Position numbers and translations under genes: made by a program. The notes under the pieces were generated by a model. That model did no database searches, was not told the origin of the DNA, and was given only the letters and a program-made list of their open reading frames with translations. Of a stretch of DNA of 64,000 nt, positions 5,629 through 58,769 are shown one piece after another. The DNA comes from Planktothrix mougeotii LEGE 06226 (GTDB lineage: Bacteria; Cyanobacteriota; Cyanobacteriia; Cyanobacteriales; Microcoleaceae), in the NCBI RefSeq assembly GCF_015207485.1, contig NZ_JADEWU010000005.1, forward strand, positions 52,508 to 116,507, read 5' to 3'. Position 1 is the first letter of the stretch, and every line of letters starts with the position of its first letter.

Positions 5629-6186
5629 ATGACTCACAAAACAGAAAAAGCACTTTTTCTTTTAGGCGGACTCAGCGATGATGATCTCAGCTGGATTATC
5701 AATAAAGCAAAAATAGAAAAACTGCCCCCCGGCGAACGGTTAATTTATGAAGGACGCCCCATTAATGCCCTTTATTTTGTATTGAGTGGATTGTTAACGG
5801 TGGTGATAGGGTCGAAAGAAGATCGAGAATTAGCCCAAATTACGACAGGGGAAGTCGTTGGAGAAGTATCTTTTATCGATAGTCGCCCCCCTTTAGCAAC
5901 GGTTAAAGCCTTAGAAACCACTCAAGTTTTAGCCATTTCTCGTTTTGATCTCAATAGCAAACTTCACCATGATTCTAAATTTGCTGCCCGATTTTATCAT
6001 GGTTTATCCCTGTGTTTAGCCAGTCGGATGCGAGGCACAATTCGACGTTTAGGTTATGATGATCTGACAGAATATGAAATAGATGTACTAGAACCTGAAG
6101 AATTTAGTGAACAGACCAAAGAATTTTTAGTTTTAGCCCAAGCTAAATTTAATTGGTTAGTTCAAAATCTCCGAGCTAGGGAATAA
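5629..6186 (+). CDS. Stand-alone cyclic-nucleotide-binding (CAP-family) domain protein with no HTH
   Basis: cNMP-binding domain signature GEVVGEVSFIDSRPPLATVKA and an upstream beta-roll segment. Confidence 0.7.
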   Translation: MTHKTEKALFLLGGLSDDDLSWIINKAKIEKLPPGERLIYEGRPINALYFVLSGLLTVVIGSKEDRELAQITTGEVVGEVSFIDSRPPLATVKALETTQVLAISRFDLNSKLHHDSKFAARFYHGLSLCLASRMRGTIRRLGYDDLTEYEIDVLEPEEFSEQTKEFLVLAQAKFNWLVQNLRARE

Positions 6187-14483: not shown

Positions 14484-15202
14484 TAAATTTTAAGATATTG
14501 TATTTGACATTAGATTACCAAAAACAGAGCCAGGGAAGCCCGGTGAGAACAGAACAAGCAGAGGGAGGGGAAAGCATTAACTTCTGACTCCGTACTCTTG
14601 CGTCAACCGCTAACCGATAAATAAAGGGTTTGCTGTTTAACCCACTCGGTACTTGACCCACTACGAATGACTAGACTTTCAGCCTTTGAGTCGGTTTGAG
14701 TAAGTTGCGTTGAGCGGTACAAATAATGTGATAATGCTTAGTGAGCGAAGATCGGGCTTGCCGTTGTCAAGCGGAGTCAGGAACCTCAGCCTAAAGGCAT
14801 GAGGCTTGAAAGAGAAATCTGACAAGTCATTCTGACCAGCCTAAGTCTTAACTGACTACGTTTTTTGAGTCACGACACCCAGCGAATGCGTAGCTAGTTC
14901 CTGGCTCTGTCATTTGCAGTTAAACAGTTTTAAGGTCACTGAAACAGTGCTGCAAGTCTAAAAAGCTCTTAAAACTTTGGCGTTCGCGTAGCGTGTGCGA
15001 AGCACTCAGCTAACATCACCCCGCAAGGGAGGCTCGAAAGAGCAAAATGCTATGCGTACAGGGTTGGAAGATTTGAAACAGTAATTGTCCTGTTGAAAGT
15101 GCAATTGCATTGGTACACCGAGTTAACTAGCCCCAAGGCGGTAGTATTCAAAAACAAGATAAAGCCGTTCTCAAAGAACGGGGTTTCAAACCCAAATTTT
15201 CG

Positions 15203-18057: not shown

Positions 18058-19218
18058 TCAACTCGGAGGTTCATCGTGGGTCGAAACAGAACGGAGGCGG
18101 CTTAATCGATTAGTTGCCCATTTAGCCAGTTCTTTAACTTCAGGATCAGGATCATCCATAGCTCGCTGTAAGATTTGATTCATTTGTGTTGCTAAATCAT
18201 AAATTCGGGTTAAATCTCGAATAGCATTTTTTCTAACTTCAGCATTTTCATCTTGGAGAGACAAACTTAAGGCGCGACTCAGGGGTTTTAACGTGCGAGT
18301 TCCAATTTCTGAGAGAGCAGCTAAAACTAAACTACGTTGATTAGAATCCGAATAAATTAATAACTCTAATAACGGTTGAATAGCCCTCGAATCTCCTGCT
18401 TGCGCCAGTTCCCAAATTGCATTATTTCTAATATCAGGACTGGTCTGTTTTAAATCATTAATCCATTTGTCCTGGGGATCAAGTTTCAGTCCATAGGACT
18501 GTGGATTAAGATTGACCGTATCCGTTACGGGGATATTCACGCCTAGGGGGTTTTCAGAGGTCGTCGGTTTGTCCGATGGCGTATCGGGGGGAGAAACCTG
18601 TAATGTCGTGTCTCGATAACCATTTTGTTCTACAGGAGCCGGAGGCTGTGACCGTTGGAGAACCGTGGGAGAAACTTGCATCTGTCCCTGGGTAATGGCT
18701 TTAACCTCTACTGATGGCGGGGGGGATTGTATTTTTGGGGGTTCCGGGAGATTTTCTGGAACCGTTTGCGCCTCAATATCCACCACTGTATCTTCATCCT
18801 CATTAGGAGGACTCATCAGCCGAATTAAGATTAAAATAGCTCCGAGCGTAATCACGAAAGCTCCTACCCCTAGGATTAATATCTTTGAGGGGAAGCGGAA
18901 AGATGATTTTTTGGGTTTCGGCGGTTTTTTAGGCTCTTTGGCTGGCGGTTTTTCAGGGTTATTTTGGGCAATTTGCCGGGATACAGCAGAACGCTCTAAA
19001 TCAGACCCAGCCGTGAGGGGTCGGGTAAAGAGATGGCGGTTTGTGTCTGTGAGATGTTGGGTTTCGTTCTCAACCTTCGCAACCGCACTTCCACTGAAGC
19101 AGAACGTTCCACCGCAGTAGGCAATACAAGCGAATACAAATAAGGTCAGGCGATAAAAAGGAGCCATGAGACTCAATTGAGTTTGTGATCGACGCTTAGT
19201 GGATATCAGGTAAAACAA
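18058..19218 (-). CDS. Membrane-anchored HEAT-repeat (PBS-lyase-like) protein with a Pro-rich linker
   Basis: N-terminal TM, a Pro/Lys-rich low-complexity region, and C-terminal HEAT-like repeats (AIWELAQAGDSRAIQPLLELL..). Confidence 0.6.
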   Translation of the reverse strand: MFYLISTKRRSQTQLSLMAPFYRLTLFVFACIAYCGGTFCFSGSAVAKVENETQHLTDTNRHLFTRPLTAGSDLERSAVSRQIAQNNPEKPPAKEPKKPPKPKKSSFRFPSKILILGVGAFVITLGAILILIRLMSPPNEDEDTVVDIEAQTVPENLPEPPKIQSPPPSVEVKAITQGQMQVSPTVLQRSQPPAPVEQNGYRDTTLQVSPPDTPSDKPTTSENPLGVNIPVTDTVNLNPQSYGLKLDPQDKWINDLKQTSPDIRNNAIWELAQAGDSRAIQPLLELLIYSDSNQRSLVLAALSEIGTRTLKPLSRALSLSLQDENAEVRKNAIRDLTRIYDLATQMNQILQRAMDDPDPEVKELAKWATNRLSRLRSVSTHDEPPS

Positions 19219-19410
19219 AGTTAACAGAGGTTGAGATAAGTTGACACTCCCAGGGAGGTCAAAACCTAGATCATCAGAATGGTGTCAGAAACAATTTTAG
19301 GGTGAATAGTCAAGATGTCCTGTTGTTGCAAGAGTTTTGCTCCTAGTTATTATCTTCCAAAAATCGCTTTTTTACCCAGATTTTAAGGTAGAACTAAGGA
19401 TGGTTGACTG

Positions 19411-22341
19411 TTGTTGGTGTGGGCGAGTCGCCAGAAGTGCACCCTACTCCTTGTCTCCTCCTTTCCTCTGTTTCCCCACACCCTAAAAATAATCGGAGAA
19501 TCTTTGTCCCCAGATCGTAAATTTATTACTACTGAACCCCTGTTTATGGGGGGAGAAAAAGCCGAATCTCAAGTCTGGATGGCGATTTGTCAAAGCTTTG
19601 AGCCACGAGATTGTATTGCCTATTGGCGTTATCCGATTTTCTCGAAAAAATTGGGAACCTTTCGGAAAGAACCGGATATTTTAATCGTAGATGCAGAATT
19701 GGGATTAATTATTATTGAGGTGAAATCAATAACAATTGAGCAAATTCTAGGAATTACAGGTCATCGTTGGGAACTCCAAGACTTTTATACCACCCAGGCG
19801 AACCCCTATCAACAGGCAGAACATCAACTATTTGCCTTACTGGACTATTGCAATTTAGAAGAGATTCTGCATCATCAGGTTCCGGGTCGTGTCCTCGTCG
19901 CCTTACCTCGCATTCTTCACTCTCAATGGCAATACCGGGGATTTGATCGGTTGCCGAGTTCTCCTCCTATTGTATTTCAAGAGGATCTAGGGTTTAAGAC
20001 TGTCGAATCTTTAATTACAGCAAACACACCCTTTTTCTCGGAACCTTCACCTGTCAACGGTCAACATTCTAGTTTAATTGAAAAAATTGAGAATGCACCG
20101 TTAGTCACGCGGGGAAGTAAACTTTCTGAGGAACAATGGGCACTGTTAAAGGCGGTTATTAGTGGAACACCGTTATTTCGTCCACCGAGTCGTCGCTTTT
20201 TTTTCAGCCAAACGGAGGATTTAGAAACCGCTTTAACGCGCAGTGCAGTGTTAGCTATTGCTAGAAAACGTATTTCTGAACTGGATTTACAACAGGAACA
20301 AATTGCCAAAGTAATCCCCCCAGGGCCACAACGAATTCGGGGTATTGCAGGTTCAGGAAAAACGGTGTTACTGTGTCAAAAAGCAGCACAAATGCACCTA
20401 AAGCATCCTGAATGGGATATTGCCGTTGTATTTTTTAGTCGCAGTTTATATGATCCAATTTTACAATACATTGATCAAGGGTTAAAGCGGTTTAGTTGTA
20501 ATCAAATCAGGTATGATCCCCAGAATTCTAAATTAAAAGTTCTTCATGCTTGGGGGGCAAAGGATCAACCTGGTTTTTATCGTACTATTTGTCAAGCTGC
20601 GGGAGTTTGGAGCCAAAGTGTTCAACAAACGACTCGTTCAAACGCCAATGAAGCCTTAGCAGAAGCTTGTTATCATTTATTAGCATCGGCAACGATTCCC
20701 ACTATTTTTGATGCTATTTTAATTGATGAAGGTCAGGATTTTATTGTTGATGAAGATTTAAAATTTGAGGGAAAACAGCCTTTTTATTGGATGGCGTATC
20801 AAGCCTTACGTCCTGTTAATCGAGAAGAAGACAATAATTCTGAAATTCCTCAAAAACGATTGATTTGGGCCTATGATGAAGTTCAAAGTTTAGAAAGTTT
20901 AAAAGTACCGACGGCGAGTGAATTGTTCGGGGATGAGTGGGGACAATTGGTTACGGGAGAATATGGCAACGGAATTAAAAAAACCGAGATTATGTCTCGA
21001 TCTTATCGGATTCCAGATCCGATTTTAACGGCCGCTCACGGGATTGGTTTAGGGTTATTGCGTCCGCAAGGATTATTAACCGGAATGAAGTGGGCAGAAG
21101 ATTGGGAAATGATGGGGTATAAAGTCAAGTTAACGAATTTAAAAAAGCCAGAAAACTCTCCCTATAATTCTCCTTTAAAATCAGGTGAAACGATTACAAT
21201 TCAGCGTCCTGAAAATCATTCGCCTCATCCGGTGGCGACGTTATGGAAAAAACCTTTAATTGAATTTGAGGCCTATCGTTCTCGTTCAGAAGAATTAACC
21301 GCTTTAAGCGATCGCATTCTATACAACTTAAAAATTGATGGGTTACGTCCCAGTCGAGAAATATTAGTCATTGTGTTAGGAATAGGGTGGGAAGCGATAC
21401 AACTTGAAACCCAGATTGCTAATTGTTTAATGCAGCAAGGAATTGATATTTTCATCCCTGGAACACCAGACTGTAATATTCTCAAACCGACTTCTAATAA
21501 TACCCATGCCAATCATTTTTGGTGTGAAGGCGGGGTAACGATTTCTCGGATTCATCGAGCCAAAGGACATGAAGCAGATATGGTTTATTTGGTAGGTTTA
21601 GATCAAATTGCTAGTGCTGAAAATAACCTTAATTTCCGTAATCAATTATTTGTGGCGATGACTCGTTCACGGGGTTGGTTGAGGTTAAGCGGTTTAGGTT
21701 CCTATCCTTTTTATGAAGAATTAGCACGAGTCATTGAAAGCGGGAATACTTTAACCTTTCATTTACGGTTTCCCCCCCAACGAGATATTAGCATTACCAA
21801 TGGCGGAGAACTGCTGCGAAGATATAAGAATGGCGATCGCAATTTTCAAGGCGCAAATCTATCCGCTCTCGATTTAACGGGAGTTAATTTAAGTCATGCT
21901 AATTTAATAGGAGCCAATCTTCAACAAACCAACCTCACCCATGCTAACTTAAATTACGCTAAATTAGTAGTGGCGAATTTAAGCCAAGCTAACATGACAG
22001 GGGCTAATCTACAGCGAGTCAAATGTGTTGGGACTAATTTACAACAGACTCGATTGAATTCTTGTGATTTGAGTCGTGCAGATCTCAGTGATGCTGATTT
22101 GAGTCAGGCGCAATTGGTTCGCGCTAATCTAAAGGATGCTAATTTGAGTGGGACAAATTTAACACAGGCTGATCTTTCCGATGCTACTCTTCAGGGTGCT
22201 GTTGTCAATGAGGCCAACTGCACAGAAGTAATTCTAACAGGGACAATATTACCCGAAGGTTGGATATTTGCAGGGGCTATCGGACGACCCTCACTGAATC
22301 AATTATCATTAAAAAAAAGAGTTGAGGATGTTGAGCACTGA
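19411..22341 (+). CDS. Three-domain fusion: NERD (PD-(D/E)xK nuclease-related) domain, then UvrD-like SF1 helicase, then a C-terminal pentapeptide-repeat domain (about 26 repeats)
   Basis: EPDILIVDAELGLIIIEVKS (PD...EVK); Walker A GIAGSGKT; Walker B/motif II ILIDEGQDF; RSYRIP; motif VI VTISRIHRAKGHEADMVYLVG; VAMTRSRGWL. The C-terminal A(N/D)LSxA(N/D)L pentapeptide tandem lies at about 21810-22220. Confidence 0.8.
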   Translation: MLVWASRQKCTLLLVSSFPLFPHTLKIIGESLSPDRKFITTEPLFMGGEKAESQVWMAICQSFEPRDCIAYWRYPIFSKKLGTFRKEPDILIVDAELGLIIIEVKSITIEQILGITGHRWELQDFYTTQANPYQQAEHQLFALLDYCNLEEILHHQVPGRVLVALPRILHSQWQYRGFDRLPSSPPIVFQEDLGFKTVESLITANTPFFSEPSPVNGQHSSLIEKIENAPLVTRGSKLSEEQWALLKAVISGTPLFRPPSRRFFFSQTEDLETALTRSAVLAIARKRISELDLQQEQIAKVIPPGPQRIRGIAGSGKTVLLCQKAAQMHLKHPEWDIAVVFFSRSLYDPILQYIDQGLKRFSCNQIRYDPQNSKLKVLHAWGAKDQPGFYRTICQAAGVWSQSVQQTTRSNANEALAEACYHLLASATIPTIFDAILIDEGQDFIVDEDLKFEGKQPFYWMAYQALRPVNREEDNNSEIPQKRLIWAYDEVQSLESLKVPTASELFGDEWGQLVTGEYGNGIKKTEIMSRSYRIPDPILTAAHGIGLGLLRPQGLLTGMKWAEDWEMMGYKVKLTNLKKPENSPYNSPLKSGETITIQRPENHSPHPVATLWKKPLIEFEAYRSRSEELTALSDRILYNLKIDGLRPSREILVIVLGIGWEAIQLETQIANCLMQQGIDIFIPGTPDCNILKPTSNNTHANHFWCEGGVTISRIHRAKGHEADMVYLVGLDQIASAENNLNFRNQLFVAMTRSRGWLRLSGLGSYPFYEELARVIESGNTLTFHLRFPPQRDISITNGGELLRRYKNGDRNFQGANLSALDLTGVNLSHANLIGANLQQTNLTHANLNYAKLVVANLSQANMTGANLQRVKCVGTNLQQTRLNSCDLSRADLSDADLSQAQLVRANLKDANLSGTNLTQADLSDATLQGAVVNEANCTEVILTGTILPEGWIFAGAIGRPSLNQLSLKKRVEDVEH

Positions 22342-22509
22342 GAGTTGACCGTTGTATGTTCTGACCCCGCTACCCCCCACCCGCCACCGCGTACTCAACA
22401 AACCGCTTCGTAACTTGCCTTTCTGATGTGAAGGAGTGAGGTGTTAATCACCACACGTCCTATTTTCAGATGACACCCTTTCCCGGTTTCGATAAACAAG
22501 AACCCCGCT

Positions 22510-25500
22510 ATGATCACTTTACCTGGCTATCAGATTCTTAACCCGATTTATAATGGTTCGAGAACACTGGTTTATCGTGGGATTCGTTTGTCTGATGGTT
22601 ACCCGGTTGTGATTAAACTATTACGCAGTGAATATCCAACCGTACCCTCCCTGATTGAATTTAGAAATCAATATCGCATTGCCAAAGCTCTTAATATATC
22701 CGGTATTGTTCCGATTCTGGATTTAGAACCCTATTGTAATGGGTTTGCCTTGATTATGGCTGATCAAGGCTATATTTCACTAGCCGATTATTTAGTACAG
22801 CGAGAACTAACCTTAAGTGAATTATTAAAAATTGCCATTGAAATTACTCAAATTTTAGAACAATTGTATCAACATCGGGTCATTCATAAAGATGTTAAGC
22901 TGCAAAATATTTTAATTCACCCGGAAACTTTGAGGGTTCAACTGATTGATTTTAGTATTTCTATTCAACTCAATCATTCCCATCAAGAAGTTGTTAATTC
23001 TCAAGGATTAGAAGGAACTTTAGCTTATATGTCTCCCGAACAAACCGGACGAACCCATTGGGGTATTGATTATCGCACAGATTTGTATTCTTTAGGAGTA
23101 ACCCTTTATCAATTATTAACTCGAAAACTTCCGTTTCCATCTTCTGATCCCCTAGAGTTAATTCATGCTCATTTAGCCTTACTTCCTCAGCCTTTAAGCA
23201 AAATTAAACCAACCTTACCGATAATGCTCAATAATATTATTTTAAAATTGATGGCTAAAAATCCAGAGGAGCGTTATCAAACTCCATTAGGACTGCGCTA
23301 TGATTTAGAAAATTGTTTAGAACAATGGGAAAAGCTGGGGGATATTCCGACCTTTCCTTTGGCGACGATTGACTTAAATGATCGATTTATTATTCCGAAT
23401 AAATTTTATGGGCGAGTGCCAGAAATTGAGCGTTTAAATTCGATTTTAAACAAAGCTCAATCGGAAATTATTGTAATTACAGGTCAATCAGGAATAGGCA
23501 AGTCTGCCCTCGTTCAAGAATTCTATCAAACCGTGGCATATTGTCGAACAGGAGTTTTGCCTGTAACTCCTTGTGTCACCTTAGAGAGTTATTTTATCAC
23601 CGGAAAATTTGATCAATTTAAAACGAATACGCCTTTCTGGGGATGGGTACAAGGGATTAAACAATTAATTCAACAAGTGTTAACTGAACCTTTGGAACAG
23701 GTAGAAGCTTGGAAAAAGAAACTTTTAAATGGACTCGGAGATCAAGCCCCGGTTTTAATGGCTGTTATTCCTGAACTGAAAGTTTTATTAAATCAACAGT
23801 CTTCCCTGACTGAATTGGAGGTCAAAATTGACCTGAATCAGTTTAATCGCTTAATTCAAAAGCTAATTCAAACTTTTGCCCAACCTCATCATCCCTTAGT
23901 CATTTTTTTAGATGATTTACAATGGGCTGATGTTGAATCCTTACGATTAATTCAGGTTTTGATGAGTCCTGAACAAAATATTTATTCTACACCTCCCACC
24001 TTAGTGTTAATTTTAGCGTATCGGGATGACGAGATCGGGGAAACCCATCCTTTAATTAAAATCTTAGAAACCTTAGAAAATTCAGGAATTCCCTTACATC
24101 GAATTCCTTTAAATGCTTTAGAAGATTCTGCCATTAATCAACTGATAGCAGAAACATTAGTTTGTTCCTTAGACCGGGCTAAACCTTTGGCAGAATTAGT
24201 CAGTCAAAAAACACAAGGAAATCCTTTTTTTGTTCGTCAATTTCTCCAATCCTTATACACAGAAGAACTAATTTGGTTTAATCCGCCTCAATCTTCGTTG
24301 AAAAATCGAAATTTATTCGGAGGTTGGCAATGTAATTTAACTCAAATTAAAACCCGTTCTATTAACTCTAATATTTTAGATTTAATTCTTCATCAATTAC
24401 AACAATTACCGCCAGATACCCAAGAAATTTTAAAAATTGCGGCTTGTTTAGGAAATCAATTTAATGCAGTAGATTTAGCCACCTCAACTCAAAAAACTTA
24501 TTTAGAAACATTAAAAGCTTTAGAAATTGCTTTACAGGCTCAATTTATTGTTATTGCTAGAGATATTTATCCCTTTTATTCCTTAGAAACCGAAGTATCT
24601 TCCCCTTCACACTTTGATCCGAATGAAACCTTACCGTTGTTACAACCCGGTATTGATAAATACCAATTTATTCATGACCGGGTTCAACAAGCTGCTTATC
24701 TTTTAATTCCAACTCATCAACGACAAGCGACCCATTTGAAAATCGGAAATTCCCTTTTAAATCAAATTAAAAAACAATATTTTAATCAATCCATTAAGAT
24801 GATTTTAAATATCATTTCAACCGAAGTTTTATTAAATATTATTAATCAACTTAATTTAGGAGTCGGCTTAATTCAGGATCAAAAAGAACGAGATCAATTA
24901 GCCTTATTTAATTTAATAGCCGGACGAAAAGCGAAAATTGCCACCGCCTATCCGACAGCCATTGGACATTTAGCGATTGGTCTGGGGTTATTGGCAAGTG
25001 AAAGTTGGGAACGAGACTATCAATTAACCTTAGAATTATACACAGAAGCAGCAGAAATTGCTTATCTTAGTCAAGATTGGGAAAATTTACAGAAGTGGGG
25101 AAATATTGTTTTAGAAAATGCTAAAATATTAGGACATAAAGTAAGAATTTATGAGTTAATGATTCAAGCTTATAGAAACCAAAATCAAGATCAAAATGCG
25201 GTCAATCTTGCATTAGCTGTTTGTCAACAATTAGGGGTTACCTGGGGTGATAATTTTAGTCAAGAAAGTTGGCAAAAATTTAAGCATAATTTTATGACTG
25301 ATTTAGGGGGAAGAACACCCTTAGCGTTATTAGATTTACCCGAATTATCCGATACTAATTTAGTAAATTTATTTACAATTTTAACCTCTGCTTTTCCTTC
25401 CGCTTATCGGGTAATTCCCGAACAATTCCCATTTTGGGTTTTAAAACTCATTCATTTATCCTATCAACAAGGAAATACAACGTTATCAAGTTTTGTCTAT

Positions 25501-28500
25501 GCTGTCTTTGGATTTATTCTTTGTACCCAAGGGGAAATTGAGTTCGGGAATCAAATGGGAGAATTAGCTTTAGAATTATCGCAAAAACAAGCAAATTCCG
25601 CATTCATTATCAAAATTAAACAACTGGTTTATCGGTTTATTAAACCTTGGAAAACTTCCTTAAAGCAGGTTTTATCTCCCCTCAAAACTTGCTATTTACA
25701 AGCTCAAGAAGCTGGGAAAATTGATGAAGCTTATTGTCTCGCTCAAGCTTATCTTGAAATCGCTTATTTCACAGGAAAGGATGTCTCTGAATTGGAGCTT
25801 GAATTGAGTCAGTGTTTAAATCAATTACAAAATTTTAAATGTCCGTCAGAACTATTAATTTTTACCACCTATCATCAAAGCTTGCAAATTTTAAATGGAA
25901 AATTAGAGGGAGACACCTCATTAAATTTTACAGGTTATGCTGAAAATGGCACAATAGGAACGACTGAAATTGGATATTCGACCCAGGAAATTTCTTTTGA
26001 ACTTAGTTTAAATTTCATGGTTCTGAATTATAGATTAGATAAATTACAACAGGCGAAGGAATGGTCTCAGCAAGCTGAATACTATTTAAACCAAGACACC
26101 TATTTTGTTTTACAACCGTTTTTTTATTGTTATCAATCTTTAATTGATTTAGCAATCTACCCGGAGTTATCGCCGGAAGACCAAGTTAAAATTTTAGAAA
26201 AAGTAACTCAAAACCAAGAAAAATTAAAAGCTTTTTCTCAGGGGACTCCGATGAACTTTTCCCATCTATTTTATTTGGTGGAGGCAGAATTTAACCACAT
26301 TCAAGGAGATTATATTAAAGCCATTGAAGCCTATGAACAAGCGATTACTTTAGCTAAAACCTATCAATTTATTCAAGAAGAAGCGTTAGCAGAGGAATTA
26401 GCGGCTAAATTTTATTTAGATTGGGGGAAAGAAAAAATAGCCCGGGTTTATTTAATTGATGCCTATTATAGTTATGCTCATTGGGGTGCTTTGGCAAAAG
26501 TCAAAGATTTAGAATCTCGTTATCCTCAACTTTTACATTCTATTTTATCACAACTTGTTATTCCTACAACAGGAACAACAATCAGTAATAATGCTACAGA
26601 AACTATTATTTCTAGTAGTCATGGAGGTTCGGCTGCTCTCGATTTAGCAACGGTGACAAAAGCTTCTCAAGCTTTATCTCAAGAAATCGATTTAGAACAA
26701 CTTTTGAAACGATTAATTCAAGTGGTAATTGAAAACGCAGGAGCCGAAAAATGTTGTATTCTTTTATCTAAATCAGGAAAATTAGCGATAGAAGCAATAG
26801 CCAGTTTAAACCCGATGAACGGAGGGTCTATTGAGATTGAATCCTTATTAAAATCCGTTTCTGTAGAACAAAGTAATGCCTTACCTTTGTTAATTTTAAA
26901 TACCGTGATTCAAACCCAAGAGTTTATGATTTTAGCAGATGCTCGTCAAGAATCTCGGTATCGTAATGATCCTTATTTAATAGAACATCAATCTAAATCA
27001 ATCCTCATGACTCCCATTCAAAATCGAGGAAAATTGATTGGAATTCTATACCTTGAAAATAACTTAGCAACCGCAGTGTTTACTCCAGAACGATTAGAAG
27101 TCCTCAAAATTCTGTTTTCTCAAGCCGCGATTTCCATTGATAATGCGAAACTTTATTCTCAAGTTCGTAATAATGAACAACAGATGACGCAATTCTTAGA
27201 AGGAATTCCGGTTGGCGTTGCTGTTTTAGACCCTACGGGTAAACCCTATTTTACCAATCAAAAAGCTCAACAATTGCTCAAAACTAAAGTCACTCCTGGA
27301 TTATTTTGTGAAGCTTTATCTAATATTTATCAAGCTTATCTCAATTGGTGTCAACAGCATCAATTTGATCAATTAACACCTTATTGTGATTTATATAATC
27401 CTACACCCGATACCACGTTTATTTTAGAAGTGAATCAAGGAGAACAAACGATATTGCTTGAAAATTGGGTAACACCGACTTATGATGAAGAGGGGGATTT
27501 AATGTATGCGATTCTGGCGTTTCAAGATATCACAAAACGTCAGCAAACAGAACTGGCTTTAAGACAAGCCGAAGAAAAATATCGCAGTATATTTGAAAAT
27601 GCCAGTGAAGGCTTATTTCAAACCACCAGGGCGGGGCATTATATCAGTGCAAATCCTGCCTTAGCGAAGATTTTAGGTTATGATTCTCCTTGGGATTTAA
27701 TGTCAACGGTTATGAATGTTGAAGAACAAATTTATGTAGATTCTCAACGCCGATTAGATTTTATACAATTAATTGATCAACAAGGGGAAGTTTCAGGATT
27801 TGAATTTAAAGCCTACCGCAAAGATGGTAGCATTATTTGGATTTCAGAAAATGCACGGGCTGTCTTTAATGATCAGAATGAATTACTGTATTATGAAGGG
27901 TTTGTCGTTGATATTACAGAACGAAAAACTGCCGAAGAAGAACGCTTACAATTTATGGCAAAACTTTCAGAATTGAATCTTCATTTAGATGAAGCGTTAG
28001 ATTCGGAATTTGAACTAACGGATGCGGCGGCGCGATTTGTTCCCCATGAATTTCTATCTTTTTTAGGTTATGAAAGTATTGTAGAAGTTCAGTTAGGGGC
28101 GGCAGTTCAAAAGGAAATGTCGATTTTATTTGCTGATATTCGGGACTTTACCAGCCTTTCTGAAGGGATGACTCCTGAAGATAATTTTAAATTTATTAAT
28201 GCGTTTTTAAGTCGCATGGAACCTGCCATCGTCGAAAATTATGGTTTTATTGATAAATATATTGGGGATGAAATTATGGCATTATTTGGCGGGTCTGCTG
28301 ATGATGCAGTTCGGGCTGGGATTTCAATGATTAGCCGACTGAATGAGTATAATGAAACCCGACAACGCCCCGAACGTCCCCCGATTAAAATTGGAATTGG
28401 TATTAATACCGGAGGATTAATGTTAGGAATTGTGGGGGGTAAAAATCGACTGGATAGTACAGTGATTAGTGATTCTGTTAATGTGGCTTCTCGCATTGAG

Positions 28501-28836
28501 AATTTAACAAAAAATTATGGGGTGTCTTTATTAATTACCCATCCTACTTTTATGGCTTTAGGAAATGCCAACGAGTATGCAATTCGGATTATTGATCGAG
28601 TCAAAGTCAAAGGAAAATCTGATGCGGTAACGGTATATGAAGTATTTGATTCAGATTTGCCGGAAATAAAAGCCGGAAAACTTCGGACAAAAACCACCTT
28701 TGAATATGGATTAATGCAATATTATTTAGAATGTTACTCCGAGGCTGCTAGATTATTCCAAGAATGTCTACATTATCTTCCGATGGATAAAGTGGCTCAA
28801 ATTTATTTAGAACGCTGTTTATCTAAAATGTCCTAA
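22510..28836 (+). CDS. 2108-aa multidomain signalling protein: Ser/Thr protein kinase, P-loop NTPase (STAND/AAA_16-like), TPR-like alpha-solenoid, GAF, 2 PAS, class III adenylate/guanylate cyclase
   Basis: Kinase VVIK, HKDVKLQNIL, DFS, TLAYMSPEQ; P-loop ITGQSGIGKSAL with hhhhDD (IFLDDLQWAD); GAF (ILMTPIQNRGKLIGILYLEN); PAS; and a CHD cyclase (ILFADIRDFT, KYIGDEIMALFG, NTGGLMLGIVGG, NVASRIENL). Confidence 0.9.
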   Translation: MITLPGYQILNPIYNGSRTLVYRGIRLSDGYPVVIKLLRSEYPTVPSLIEFRNQYRIAKALNISGIVPILDLEPYCNGFALIMADQGYISLADYLVQRELTLSELLKIAIEITQILEQLYQHRVIHKDVKLQNILIHPETLRVQLIDFSISIQLNHSHQEVVNSQGLEGTLAYMSPEQTGRTHWGIDYRTDLYSLGVTLYQLLTRKLPFPSSDPLELIHAHLALLPQPLSKIKPTLPIMLNNIILKLMAKNPEERYQTPLGLRYDLENCLEQWEKLGDIPTFPLATIDLNDRFIIPNKFYGRVPEIERLNSILNKAQSEIIVITGQSGIGKSALVQEFYQTVAYCRTGVLPVTPCVTLESYFITGKFDQFKTNTPFWGWVQGIKQLIQQVLTEPLEQVEAWKKKLLNGLGDQAPVLMAVIPELKVLLNQQSSLTELEVKIDLNQFNRLIQKLIQTFAQPHHPLVIFLDDLQWADVESLRLIQVLMSPEQNIYSTPPTLVLILAYRDDEIGETHPLIKILETLENSGIPLHRIPLNALEDSAINQLIAETLVCSLDRAKPLAELVSQKTQGNPFFVRQFLQSLYTEELIWFNPPQSSLKNRNLFGGWQCNLTQIKTRSINSNILDLILHQLQQLPPDTQEILKIAACLGNQFNAVDLATSTQKTYLETLKALEIALQAQFIVIARDIYPFYSLETEVSSPSHFDPNETLPLLQPGIDKYQFIHDRVQQAAYLLIPTHQRQATHLKIGNSLLNQIKKQYFNQSIKMILNIISTEVLLNIINQLNLGVGLIQDQKERDQLALFNLIAGRKAKIATAYPTAIGHLAIGLGLLASESWERDYQLTLELYTEAAEIAYLSQDWENLQKWGNIVLENAKILGHKVRIYELMIQAYRNQNQDQNAVNLALAVCQQLGVTWGDNFSQESWQKFKHNFMTDLGGRTPLALLDLPELSDTNLVNLFTILTSAFPSAYRVIPEQFPFWVLKLIHLSYQQGNTTLSSFVYAVFGFILCTQGEIEFGNQMGELALELSQKQANSAFIIKIKQLVYRFIKPWKTSLKQVLSPLKTCYLQAQEAGKIDEAYCLAQAYLEIAYFTGKDVSELELELSQCLNQLQNFKCPSELLIFTTYHQSLQILNGKLEGDTSLNFTGYAENGTIGTTEIGYSTQEISFELSLNFMVLNYRLDKLQQAKEWSQQAEYYLNQDTYFVLQPFFYCYQSLIDLAIYPELSPEDQVKILEKVTQNQEKLKAFSQGTPMNFSHLFYLVEAEFNHIQGDYIKAIEAYEQAITLAKTYQFIQEEALAEELAAKFYLDWGKEKIARVYLIDAYYSYAHWGALAKVKDLESRYPQLLHSILSQLVIPTTGTTISNNATETIISSSHGGSAALDLATVTKASQALSQEIDLEQLLKRLIQVVIENAGAEKCCILLSKSGKLAIEAIASLNPMNGGSIEIESLLKSVSVEQSNALPLLILNTVIQTQEFMILADARQESRYRNDPYLIEHQSKSILMTPIQNRGKLIGILYLENNLATAVFTPERLEVLKILFSQAAISIDNAKLYSQVRNNEQQMTQFLEGIPVGVAVLDPTGKPYFTNQKAQQLLKTKVTPGLFCEALSNIYQAYLNWCQQHQFDQLTPYCDLYNPTPDTTFILEVNQGEQTILLENWVTPTYDEEGDLMYAILAFQDITKRQQTELALRQAEEKYRSIFENASEGLFQTTRAGHYISANPALAKILGYDSPWDLMSTVMNVEEQIYVDSQRRLDFIQLIDQQGEVSGFEFKAYRKDGSIIWISENARAVFNDQNELLYYEGFVVDITERKTAEEERLQFMAKLSELNLHLDEALDSEFELTDAAARFVPHEFLSFLGYESIVEVQLGAAVQKEMSILFADIRDFTSLSEGMTPEDNFKFINAFLSRMEPAIVENYGFIDKYIGDEIMALFGGSADDAVRAGISMISRLNEYNETRQRPERPPIKIGIGINTGGLMLGIVGGKNRLDSTVISDSVNVASRIENLTKNYGVSLLITHPTFMALGNANEYAIRIIDRVKVKGKSDAVTVYEVFDSDLPEIKAGKLRTKTTFEYGLMQYYLECYSEAARLFQECLHYLPMDKVAQIYLERCLSKMS

Positions 28837-28850
28837 GTCTTTGATATGAT

Positions 28851-29390
28851 TTGAACAATCCTTTGTGTTTTGAACCATTACCCAGTATGAGCGATTTGTA
28901 TATTTCAGCGACGGAATACCACCACAAAATTGAAACCTTAGCGGTAAAAATTTATCAGTCTCAATGGCAATTTAATCAAATTGTCTGTTTAGCGAGGGGA
29001 GGGTTACGAGTCGGGGATATTCTGTCTCGGATTTTTGAACAACCGATGGCGATTTTAGCAACATCATCCTATCATGGGCCAGGGGGAAAAGTTCGAGGCG
29101 CGATCAAAATTGCTGAACACTTAACCATGACGACGGACACCTTGGGAAGTCACGTTTTATTAGTGGATGATTTAGTGGATTCTGGGATTAGTTTACAAGA
29201 ATCTATCCGTTGGTTGCAATCTCGTTATCCTCAAATCCAAGAGATGAAAACGGCGGTTCTCTGGTATAAAAGTTGTTCAGTAATGGCTCCCGATTATTTT
29301 GTCGATTATCTAGCGGATAACCCTTGGATTCATCAACCCTTTGAATGTTATGAAAACCTGAATTTAGCCGAGTTGGAACAACAGGGTTAA
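28851..29390 (+). CDS. gpt: Xanthine-guanine phosphoribosyltransferase
   Basis: Collinear with E. coli Gpt (LARGGL..G; the PRPP loop LLVDDLVDSG; C-terminal PWIHQPFE). It starts 14 bp after the cyclase gene stop, so is probably co-transcribed. Confidence 0.8.
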   Translation: MNNPLCFEPLPSMSDLYISATEYHHKIETLAVKIYQSQWQFNQIVCLARGGLRVGDILSRIFEQPMAILATSSYHGPGGKVRGAIKIAEHLTMTTDTLGSHVLLVDDLVDSGISLQESIRWLQSRYPQIQEMKTAVLWYKSCSVMAPDYFVDYLADNPWIHQPFECYENLNLAELEQQG

Positions 29391-29599
29391 ACAAGATGAC
29401 TAATCACTTTTTCTCACCCCCTGTTCCCTACTCCCAGTAAATCGCTGTTCCCTATTCCTCTCGATAGATTGCAAAATCTTAATTTTATCGATGTAAAATA
29501 TTTGATTTTCTTAACATCTGAGGAACACACAATTTTAAAATCCTGTGTTATCTTAAAAAATGTAAACACTGAACGCATTAAACCGTTTAGGGAGCCAAG

Positions 29600-29880
29600 G
29601 AGGTGATGCCCATGATTGAAAGTAGTAAACCCATGGGTCACCGGATTGGAAAATGCCGACTGTGCGCCGGGGCTGTCATCTAGTGCAAAGTTTGTGTTCA
29701 TTTAGGACACTCGCTGACCTAGATAACCGGACTCATACTAAATGATCTTCCGGCAGTCAGGTTCTAATCCAGGAGACCCGCTAGACCGCTCTTACCCTAT
29801 TGTGAAAGCAACTGCTAACACAAACTCTGGGTGAGAGCGGATAGTTATTTTAATCCTACATTTATTATCATTTTAAAGTA
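29600..29880 (+). promoter_or_regulatory. Candidate structured cis-regulatory RNA: a B12-box-like core (CCAGGAGACC at 29769-29778) downstream of a long stem (GGTGATGCCCATG...CATGGGTCACC), followed by terminator-like stems (CCGCTCTTACCC at 29786-29797 with GGGTGAGAGCGG at 29829-29840, then a T-tract) immediately 5' of the 29885 ORF
   Basis: The 10-mer matches the cobalamin-riboswitch B12 box core, GCCGACTG resembles the conserved GCCACTG, and the expression-platform-like hairpin plus U-tract ends 5 nt before the downstream start. The other cobalamin consensus blocks are poorly matched, so the class is uncertain. Confidence 0.25.
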
Positions 29881-58336: not shown

Positions 58337-58769
58337 GACTCAGGGGAATTTATTCCCCGTGAATATTGGATTGGGAACCGACAAAAATTGTTGTATTTGC
58401 TGATTCCCGGTTTTTTAGGATTTCTCCCACTCTGATTTCTCAGGTAAAGTTAGCTTCGCCAATGTTATCGGTCGGTAACTATCCCAAAAGCACTGTCTTA
58501 CCCCTCGTAAAACTGTTTAACTTTCGAGTTCCAGAGCAACGGACTAGCTACGCATCCATTGGTGGGTCTTTAACACTTACCGATAACGTAGCCATTAGGC
58601 TCAGGCTGGTCAACTAACTAAAGCTAGAGGCTTGAAGCCCCGTCACTTCAGTGCGGGGTGCTGACAATTCCACCTGACAACGTTCTCTTGGGTCGAGCTT
58701 TCATGGGCTCAACGTTATTAACTTAGACGTTACTTTAATTATAGCAATCCTAAGTCAGATTCCAAACAC

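Follow-up and report, generated by a model that had tools for sequence, protein, structure and literature searches.

The closest described relatives of the gene examined here are the HstK-like proteins of filamentous cyanobacteria, a family in which a kinase-like domain, a MalT-type STAND module with its arm, and a GAF domain, with or without PAS domains, are combined with an exchangeable output domain. In the HstK or cbSTKIII 'dual protein kinases' of Anabaena and Nostoc, such as Alr2258, the kinase-like domain, the NTPase with its arm, and the GAF domain are followed by a histidine kinase. The Arthrospira protein NIES39_A07100 was described as having the HstK architecture with the histidine kinase swapped for an adenylate cyclase (Fujisawa et al. 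2010, PMC2853384), and the Trichodesmium protein Tery_2857, with kinase, GAF, and cyclase domains, was placed inside the HstK cluster (Zhang et al. 2007, PMC2176072). Here we report the analysis of a gene for a 2108-amino-acid protein in a 64,000-nucleotide stretch of the genome of Planktothrix mougeotii LEGE 06226 (contig NZ_JADEWU010000005.1, positions 52,508 to 116,507 of the forward strand). This whole stretch is called the window below, and all coordinates refer to it. The large protein is the Planktothrix orthologue of the Arthrospira 'kinase-GAF-PAS-adenylate cyclase' protein, and it is very likely a cytoplasmic multi-sensor adenylate cyclase of class IIIb built on the HstK-like kinase-STAND-GAF chassis.

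The gene occupies a complete open reading frame (ORF) at 22510-28836 on the forward strand, which begins with ATG and is uninterrupted. The order of domains in its product is Ser/Thr-kinase-like, STAND NTPase, helical-repeat arm, GAF, PAS, PAS, and class IIIb cyclase. Pfam profiles recognized the kinase-like domain at residues 8-257 (22531-23280; Pkinase, 104.5 bits), the P-loop NTPase at residues 298-490 (23401-23979; AAA_16, 107.1 bits), the GAF domain at residues 1394-1543 (26689-27138; 59.3 bits), two PAS domains at residues 1563-1678 and 1689-1802 (27196-27915; PAS_4, 31.0 bits, and PAS, 43.4 bits), and the class III cyclase homology domain at residues 1868-2041 (28111-28632; Guanylate_cyc, 64.6 bits). 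Between the NTPase and the GAF domain, approximately at residues 491-1350 (23980-26559), lie helical and winged-helix-like segments and, after them, a long superhelical arm resembling MalT domain III and TPR repeats; a TPR_2 match near residue 1264 fell under its Pfam cut-off. Among the NCBIfam profiles, the TIGR00229 sensory_box (PAS) model matched the protein with 88 bits, and no equivalog-level name was obtained. The protein had been predicted from the letters alone to be a single polypeptide with kinase, NTPase, solenoid, GAF, PAS, and cyclase parts, and all of these domains proved to be real, judged by the ORF, Pfam, and a structure model. A 99%-identical protein (P0001) was found, the Planktothrix orthologues are 63-87% identical to the query, and its nearest named relatives are Planktothrix species.

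The identity of the output rests on the catalytic residues of the cyclase domain, the inspection of which had been proposed in the earlier reading made from the sequence alone (the sequence-only reading). The domain has the residue set of class IIIb adenylate cyclases, that is two Asp, Lys, Thr, Asn, and Arg. The metal-binding residues are D1876 (in FADIRDF) and D1920, and the substrate-specifying pair is formed by K1916 (in IDKYIGDE) and T1984, the latter located seven residues ahead of the transition-state residue N1991, with R1995 as the second transition-state residue. This canonical adenylate cyclase set of six residues is invariant in all 91 aligned family members. A lysine at the first specificity position is the mark of adenylate cyclases and a glutamate that of guanylate cyclases (PMC4215837). 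The best solved relatives of the domain are Synechocystis Cya2 (2w01, 90 bits), Pseudomonas aeruginosa CyaB (3r5g, 85 bits), and OaPAC (about 74 bits). CyaB and OaPAC have the same six catalytic positions as the large protein and the same Lys/Thr pair, which was seen in the aligned sequences of CyaB (3r5g) and of the photoactivated adenylate cyclase (5x4t), whereas the guanylate cyclase Cya2 differs in having Glu and Gly at the specificity positions. The regulatory parts of all three enzymes are much simpler than those of the large protein.

Because all six catalytic residues, including the Lys/Thr pair of adenylate cyclases, are retained without change by 91 of 91 relatives, the product of the domain is most likely cyclic AMP (cAMP), not cyclic CMP (cCMP) or cyclic UMP (cUMP). 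A single chain holds every catalytic residue, and a homodimer with two active sites is therefore expected, by analogy with the established behaviour of class III cyclases. The cyclase domain is followed by a conserved helical tail of approximately 65 residues, which reaches position 28833.

The central NTPase contains the Walker A motif GQSGIGKS (residues 325-332) and the Walker B motif VIFLDD (residues 464-469), both conserved across the relatives and the latter confirming the hhhhDD pattern noticed previously; G325, G328, G330, K331, and D468-D469 do not vary among the 121 sequences compared. A sequence search with the NTPase-arm region (residues 291-1397) gave no match at E <= 0.01 among all solved structures, and for this reason the fold was taken from a model of residues 290-1390, built with a 44-sequence alignment (mean predicted local distance difference test score, pLDDT, of 81; predicted template modelling score, pTM, of 0.75). 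The top Foldseek match of this model was PH0952, a 'STAND protein with a TPR sensor' (6mfv, E 1.5e-9), other fold matches included MalT, Apaf-1, and NRC2, and the NTPase fold resembles both STAND and ORC/Cdc6 NTPases; no Avs structure was found among the top fold matches of the modelled region. Together, the motifs and the model provide a P-loop NTPase with Walker A and B, helical and winged-helix segments, and a repeat arm, as in the MalT clade of STAND proteins, and in the model the NTPase and arm form a MalT-clade STAND module with a superhelical arm. The likeness to MalT and PH0952, two NTPases of this clade, comes from the model, while at the sequence level the large protein matched no solved structure. 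MalT differs in its LuxR DNA-binding output, whereas the module of the large protein stands between the kinase-like domain and the GAF-PAS-cyclase part.

To place the protein among its relatives, its whole sequence was searched, which yielded a set dominated by proteins with the domain layout of the query, from Planktothrix, Microcoleus, Nostoc, Trichormus, Coleofasciculus, Limnospira, and Lyngbya, including at least 90 cyclase-ending relatives in a full-length alignment, with two copies in several genomes. Such a search is biased by the cyclase domain of the query itself, and as a counter the central module was searched alone, producing 8969 clusters (50% identity) at E <= 1e-30; the kinase-STAND-GAF chassis is thus common to thousands of clusters. 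The outputs among the 150 best central-module representatives were a histidine kinase in 103, GGDEF in 11, PP2C in 8, and a cyclase in 5, with 23 unclassified. The sequence-only reading had held that kinase-NTPase-GAF proteins mostly end in a histidine kinase, and these counts bear it out: HstK and cbSTKIII represent the majority architecture, from which the large protein differs in having a cyclase instead of the histidine kinase output. The cyclase ending is a less usual, yet recurrent and well-populated variant that is already in the literature.

The large protein has the features of the cyclase-ending HstK-like proteins of the NIES39_A07100 type, namely a kinase-like domain, AAA_16, GAF and PAS domains, and a C-terminal cyclase. 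By their published description, NIES39_A07100 and Tery_2857 have the same domain order, and the architecture is not new (PMC2853384, PMC2176072); the two papers make no mention of the AAA_16/STAND module and contain no biochemistry. The Planktothrix proteins are approximately 100-150 amino acids longer than the NIES39_A07100 and Tery_2857 type. The Limnospira homologue is 43% identical to the query over its full length, shares its architecture and the helicase and HEAT neighbours upstream, and clusters with the query. A 44%-identical paralogue was found on a record titled Phormidium sp. plasmid pPhorR1S1_2 (CP143275.1, locus L014), and thus at least some members of the family are plasmid-borne. 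The Planktothrix agardhii orthologue (LR882949.1, locus L002, 10001-15841) is called as 1946 amino acids compared with about 2092 and aligns piecewise, its best segment having 82% identity over 46%, a sign that this strain may have undergone a deletion or rearrangement inside the gene.

Other proteins combine some of the same parts. The TOMM system kinase/cyclase fusion protein (TIGR03903) likewise joins kinase, cyclase, and AAA_16 parts, in a different domain order. This identity was rejected for the large protein, which scored 68 bits against a cut-off of 705.75; YcaO or NHLP genes occur at only 3 of the 88 loci, all of them paralogues, and the surroundings of the large gene in the window contain neither YcaO nor precursor genes. 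The paralogues in question, from Trichormus, Phormidium ambiguum, and Anabaena catenula (44-45% identity), are located directly upstream of genes for an NHLP-type precursor, YcaO, and ThcOx (L003, 14103-20779; L005, 14851-17551; L015, 16109-21358), with a second paralogue ending in GGDEF sitting between in L005. They look like a cyanobacterial equivalent of the association known from the 'TOMM kinase/cyclase fusion'. In Mycobacterium tuberculosis, PknK (a kinase with a MalT-like region) and the Rv0386-type cyclases (cyclase, AAA_16, TPR, and LuxR) each carry a STAND module of the MalT type, joined to a kinase in the first and to a class III cyclase in the second; neither is known to unite a kinase and a cyclase, and their domain order and sensors differ from those of the large protein.

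In the mechanism that we propose for this adenylate cyclase, the STAND NTPase, by binding or hydrolysing a nucleotide, would control a switch from an autoinhibited to an oligomeric state, as in MalT, and the GAF and PAS sensors would set the activity of the cyclase via the helical linker. The cyclase domains, arranged as a head-to-tail homodimer with two complete active sites, would convert ATP to cAMP, which would then act on CRP-type and other cyclic nucleotide (cNMP)-binding proteins of the cell. The atypical kinase domain may phosphorylate its own protein or partners, or may serve as an ATP-binding regulatory domain. The suggestion made earlier that the gene encodes a second-messenger signalling protein is judged correct. 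As a member of the family with an easily assayed output, the cyclase-ending protein would offer a handle on the way in which an output domain is gated by a STAND switch of the MalT type together with an atypical kinase domain.

Several points weigh against this interpretation. The comparison with Arthrospira was made via the Limnospira homologue of the same architecture and synteny, not via the locus tag NIES39_A07100. In the literature searched, there was no assayed member and no biochemical study of the cyclase-ending subfamily; the cAMP product and its regulation are predictions. A helicase-pentapeptide gene adjoins the large gene in three genera, and a functional link between the two is thus possible. 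Finally, the activity of the kinase-like domain is uncertain, since its glycine-rich loop, a glutamine (Q54) in place of the alphaC glutamate, and its HKD and DFS motifs depart from the canon.

The last of these points opens the alternative that survives best, in which the N-terminal domain binds ATP and acts in regulation or dimerisation with no phosphotransfer, like the kinase-homology domain of animal receptor guanylate cyclases. The best solved relative of the domain is PknB (111 bits). Of the GxGxxG loop only the middle glycine is left (Y14-x-G16-x-x-T19), and most family members have a serine even at that position; Gln54 aligns to the alphaC Glu59 of PknB, a position occupied by Glu in 73 and by Gln in 47 of the 121 family sequences; and HRD and DFG are replaced by HKD and DFS. 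Fusions of kinase-homology and cyclase domains are, moreover, a known design, as exemplified by the ATP-binding kinase-homology domain of guanylate cyclase C and by a survey of kinase-cyclase fusions (PMC4718504). On the other hand, K36 is invariant in 120 of 121 relatives, and D128 (in HKD), N133, and D147 (in DFS) in all 121, which points to catalysis being under selection; the domain does not count as a pseudokinase under the usual three-residue rule; and the remaining glycine, G16, corresponds to Gly52 of protein kinase A (PKA), the loop glycine termed 'critical' in a review of pseudokinases (PMC4718504). An SPE motif is also present, with its Pro and Glu invariant. The invariant catalytic residues thus argue for kinase activity, and the changes in the loop and alphaC argue for atypical nucleotide handling. 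We regard a domain that does not transfer phosphate as a tentative alternative, possible though not favoured. Of the description 'apparently catalytically competent' in the sequence-only reading, the part resting on K36, D128, N133, D147, and SPE stood, and the part that would require an intact glycine-rich loop and the alphaC glutamate did not.

The remaining alternatives depend on the gene neighbourhood. The order of genes is identical in 12 of 12 Planktothrix-clade loci, across which the large gene is 63-87% identical: a HEAT-repeat protein gene on the reverse strand is followed, all on the forward strand, by the genes for a helicase with pentapeptide repeats, the large protein, a phosphoribosyltransferase (PRTase), a pterin dehydratase, and a GAF-HD-GYP protein, past which there are a variable spot and then the reverse-strand genes for OppC and an AI-2E-type transporter. 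In the window, the HEAT-repeat protein is encoded at 18058-19218 (reverse strand), divergently from the superfamily 1 (SF1) helicase with C-terminal pentapeptide repeats at 19411-22341 (forward strand; Pfam and NCBIfam), which is separated from the large ORF by a 168-nucleotide gap. The pterin-4a-carbinolamine dehydratase at 29885-30166 and the GAF-HD-GYP phosphodiesterase at 30267-31910, both on the forward strand, are neighbours conserved within the genus. The Limnospira and Lyngbya CCY1209 loci keep the HEAT, helicase, and large genes, with the PRTase gene not adjacent, and their large proteins group with that of the window when a tree is built from the N-terminal region; none of these neighbours is shared by approximately 70 paralogue loci. 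Because the order is fixed in 12 of 12 loci and the synteny extends in part to Limnospira and Lyngbya, the large gene has the pattern of a vertically inherited core gene. The sequence-only reading had asked whether the distribution is patchy or conserved and had named beforehand the outcome that would refute its proposal, a vertically inherited syntenic core gene with canonical adenylate cyclase residues; the conserved block at 12 of 12 loci and the cyclase residues largely correspond to that outcome.

One alternative drawn from this neighbourhood is that the HEAT protein, the NERD/SF1 helicase-pentapeptide protein, and the large protein form a functional unit, in which the helicase reports a nucleic-acid or DNA-stress signal to the STAND-cyclase. 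The helicase gene is always located upstream, on the same strand, and next to the large gene in Planktothrix, Limnospira, and Lyngbya CCY1209, and the HEAT gene is always divergent from it. However, the gap between the helicase gene and the large gene is 111-350 nucleotides, leaving room for a separate promoter; in Capilliphycus the HEAT-helicase pair adjoins the PRTase gene with no large gene between; the approximately 70 paralogues of the large gene lack the pair; and conserved gene order among related Oscillatoriales accounts equally well for the adjacency. A functional unit of this kind is consequently unlikely. Its more specific form, a single module in which a signal of DNA stress or of an invader would pass from the helicase to the STAND switch and release a burst of cAMP, is quite unlikely; if true, filamentous cyanobacteria would have in this trio a chromosomal sensor of conflict or stress that works through an ordinary second messenger. 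As a separate observation, the divergent pair of HEAT and SF1 helicase-pentapeptide genes, the latter encoding about 900 amino acids, is conserved in Planktothrix, Limnospira, Lyngbya CCY1209, and Capilliphycus (18058-22341 in the window; loci L004, L087, and L088), and the helicase of P. agardhii has a NERD-like N-terminus.

A second alternative couples the large gene to the purine-type PRTase gene downstream, as an operon tying cAMP synthesis to purine salvage. The PRTase (PF00156, 100.6 bits) is encoded at 28887-29390 on the forward strand and has 167 amino acids when counted from the ATG at 28887, or 179 from a TTG at 28851. The gap of 14 bp that was reported previously needs the TTG start, whereas Planktothrix gene calls of 167 amino acids match the ATG, and the PRTase probably starts 50 nucleotides past the stop of the large gene. 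The name 'gpt' did not hold either, since only the PF00156 fold was recovered, with XPRT/Gpt (NF006613) at 45.3 against a cut-off of 138. Both Gpt and Hpt were rejected as identities, the HGPRT model TIGR01203 giving 49.6 against 150, and the best solved relative of the protein is an archaeal purine PRTase (4trb, 40.9 bits). In favour of an operon, the two genes are on the same strand, the 50-nucleotide gap in the window has no terminator-like site, and they remain next to each other in 12 of 12 Planktothrix-clade loci; co-transcription is possible. Against it, the gap varies from 49 to 254 nucleotides across 11 related loci within the genus, and promoter and terminator scans of 22200-32400 returned no more sites than shuffled sequence, with nothing informative in the gap. 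The PRTase is pan-cyanobacterial, with homologues 65-77% identical throughout Nostocales and Oscillatoriales, and is far more conserved than the large gene. It also occurs apart from the latter: in Capilliphycus it comes immediately after this HEAT-helicase pair, in Trichormus it is located at another place with unrelated neighbours, the Limnospira and Lyngbya orthologues of the large gene lack an adjoining PRTase gene, and none of the approximately 70 paralogue loci has one. The tight coupling claimed in the sequence-only reading is thus weak, and the functional operon is quite improbable. The PRTase gene is best read as a housekeeping gene and not as a partner of the large gene; the two belong to the same old syntenic block. 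The small ORF at 29414-29701 (reverse strand) had no family match and is weakly conserved at the tblastn level, and it was not accepted as a gene.

The sequence-only reading had also raised the idea of an anti-phage module, in which the STAND part would sense a phage protein as in Avs, the cyclase would make an alarm signal as in Pycsar, and the effector would be the cNMP-binding protein or the HD-GYP enzyme nearby. Both of these proteins are real: the HD-GYP enzyme contains the HD...HHEKLDGTGYP motif, and the cNMP-binding protein at 5629-6186 is a soluble stand-alone domain of 185 amino acids. Apart from the STAND fold, this idea draws on matches to PADLOC models, which are at the domain level only for the large protein (kinase-like domain to PD-T4-6, 156 bits, and to mad6; cyclase domain to PycC, 56-58 bits, the PycC models spanning 14-58 bits), and on flanking helicases with a defence-like flavour, namely the one upstream ('Helicase' PDLC03002, 260 bits) and a NERD-UvrD helicase at 32279-34120 (C3a187, 196 bits). 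The cyclase domain, however, scores higher against Cya2 and CyaB than against PycC. It shares the class III cyclase fold with PycC and differs from it in the invariant Lys/Thr pocket of the purine type, which argues against cCMP or cUMP synthesis, in the huge sensory N-terminus, in the lack of an adjacent effector gene, which in Pycsar would join a cNMP-binding domain to a TIR, transmembrane, or similar killing domain, and in its conserved chromosomal position. No Avs, NLR, or bNACHT model of PADLOC matched the NTPase region, the sole match of which was a 35-bit P-loop match to a candidate model, and its closest structures include MalT with no Avs among the top matches; the PRTase and the HD-GYP protein had no PADLOC match. 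The genes beside the large gene encode the PRTase, pterin dehydratase, HD-GYP enzyme, and helicase, and the only cNMP-binding protein lies 16 kb away and has no effector domain. Enzymes of the HD-GYP class are known to act on cyclic di-GMP-type substrates rather than on cAMP. The position of the large gene is fixed in 12 of 12 related loci, as opposed to the patchy, island-borne pattern expected of Avs, the NERD-UvrD helicase belongs to a strain-specific insertion set apart from the large gene by four conserved genes, and the protein is part of a signalling family with massive paralogy, whose outputs include histidine kinase, PP2C, and GGDEF. With its conserved position, adenylate cyclase residues in 91 of 91 relatives, no Avs model, and no adjacent effector, a defence role is extremely doubtful. 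A striking ORF resembling an Avs/Pycsar hybrid is instead a core-genome signalling enzyme of a family present in genome surveys since 2007-2010, and domain-level PADLOC matches to PD-T4-6 or PycC should not be taken, in signalling proteins of cyanobacteria, as a sign of a defence system.

Some further features of the window were recorded. The insertion between the HD-GYP gene and OppC (32279-39371) is strain-specific and absent in all 12 Planktothrix-clade relatives. Besides the NERD-UvrD helicase, it carries a 108-amino-acid ORF, a flavin adenine dinucleotide (FAD) monooxygenase gene, and a full-length psaB (TIGR01336, 1524 bits) that stands alone, having no adjacent psaA; the presence of petC, petA, and a psaB within the window marks the host as a cyanobacterium. 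Two full-length HEARO RNAs (RF02033) were detected at 14776-15005 (forward strand, 139 bits) and 58444-58665 (reverse strand, 149 bits); in neither case does an IscB-type ORF come next, the genes that follow being petC and a gene for a DUF305 protein.

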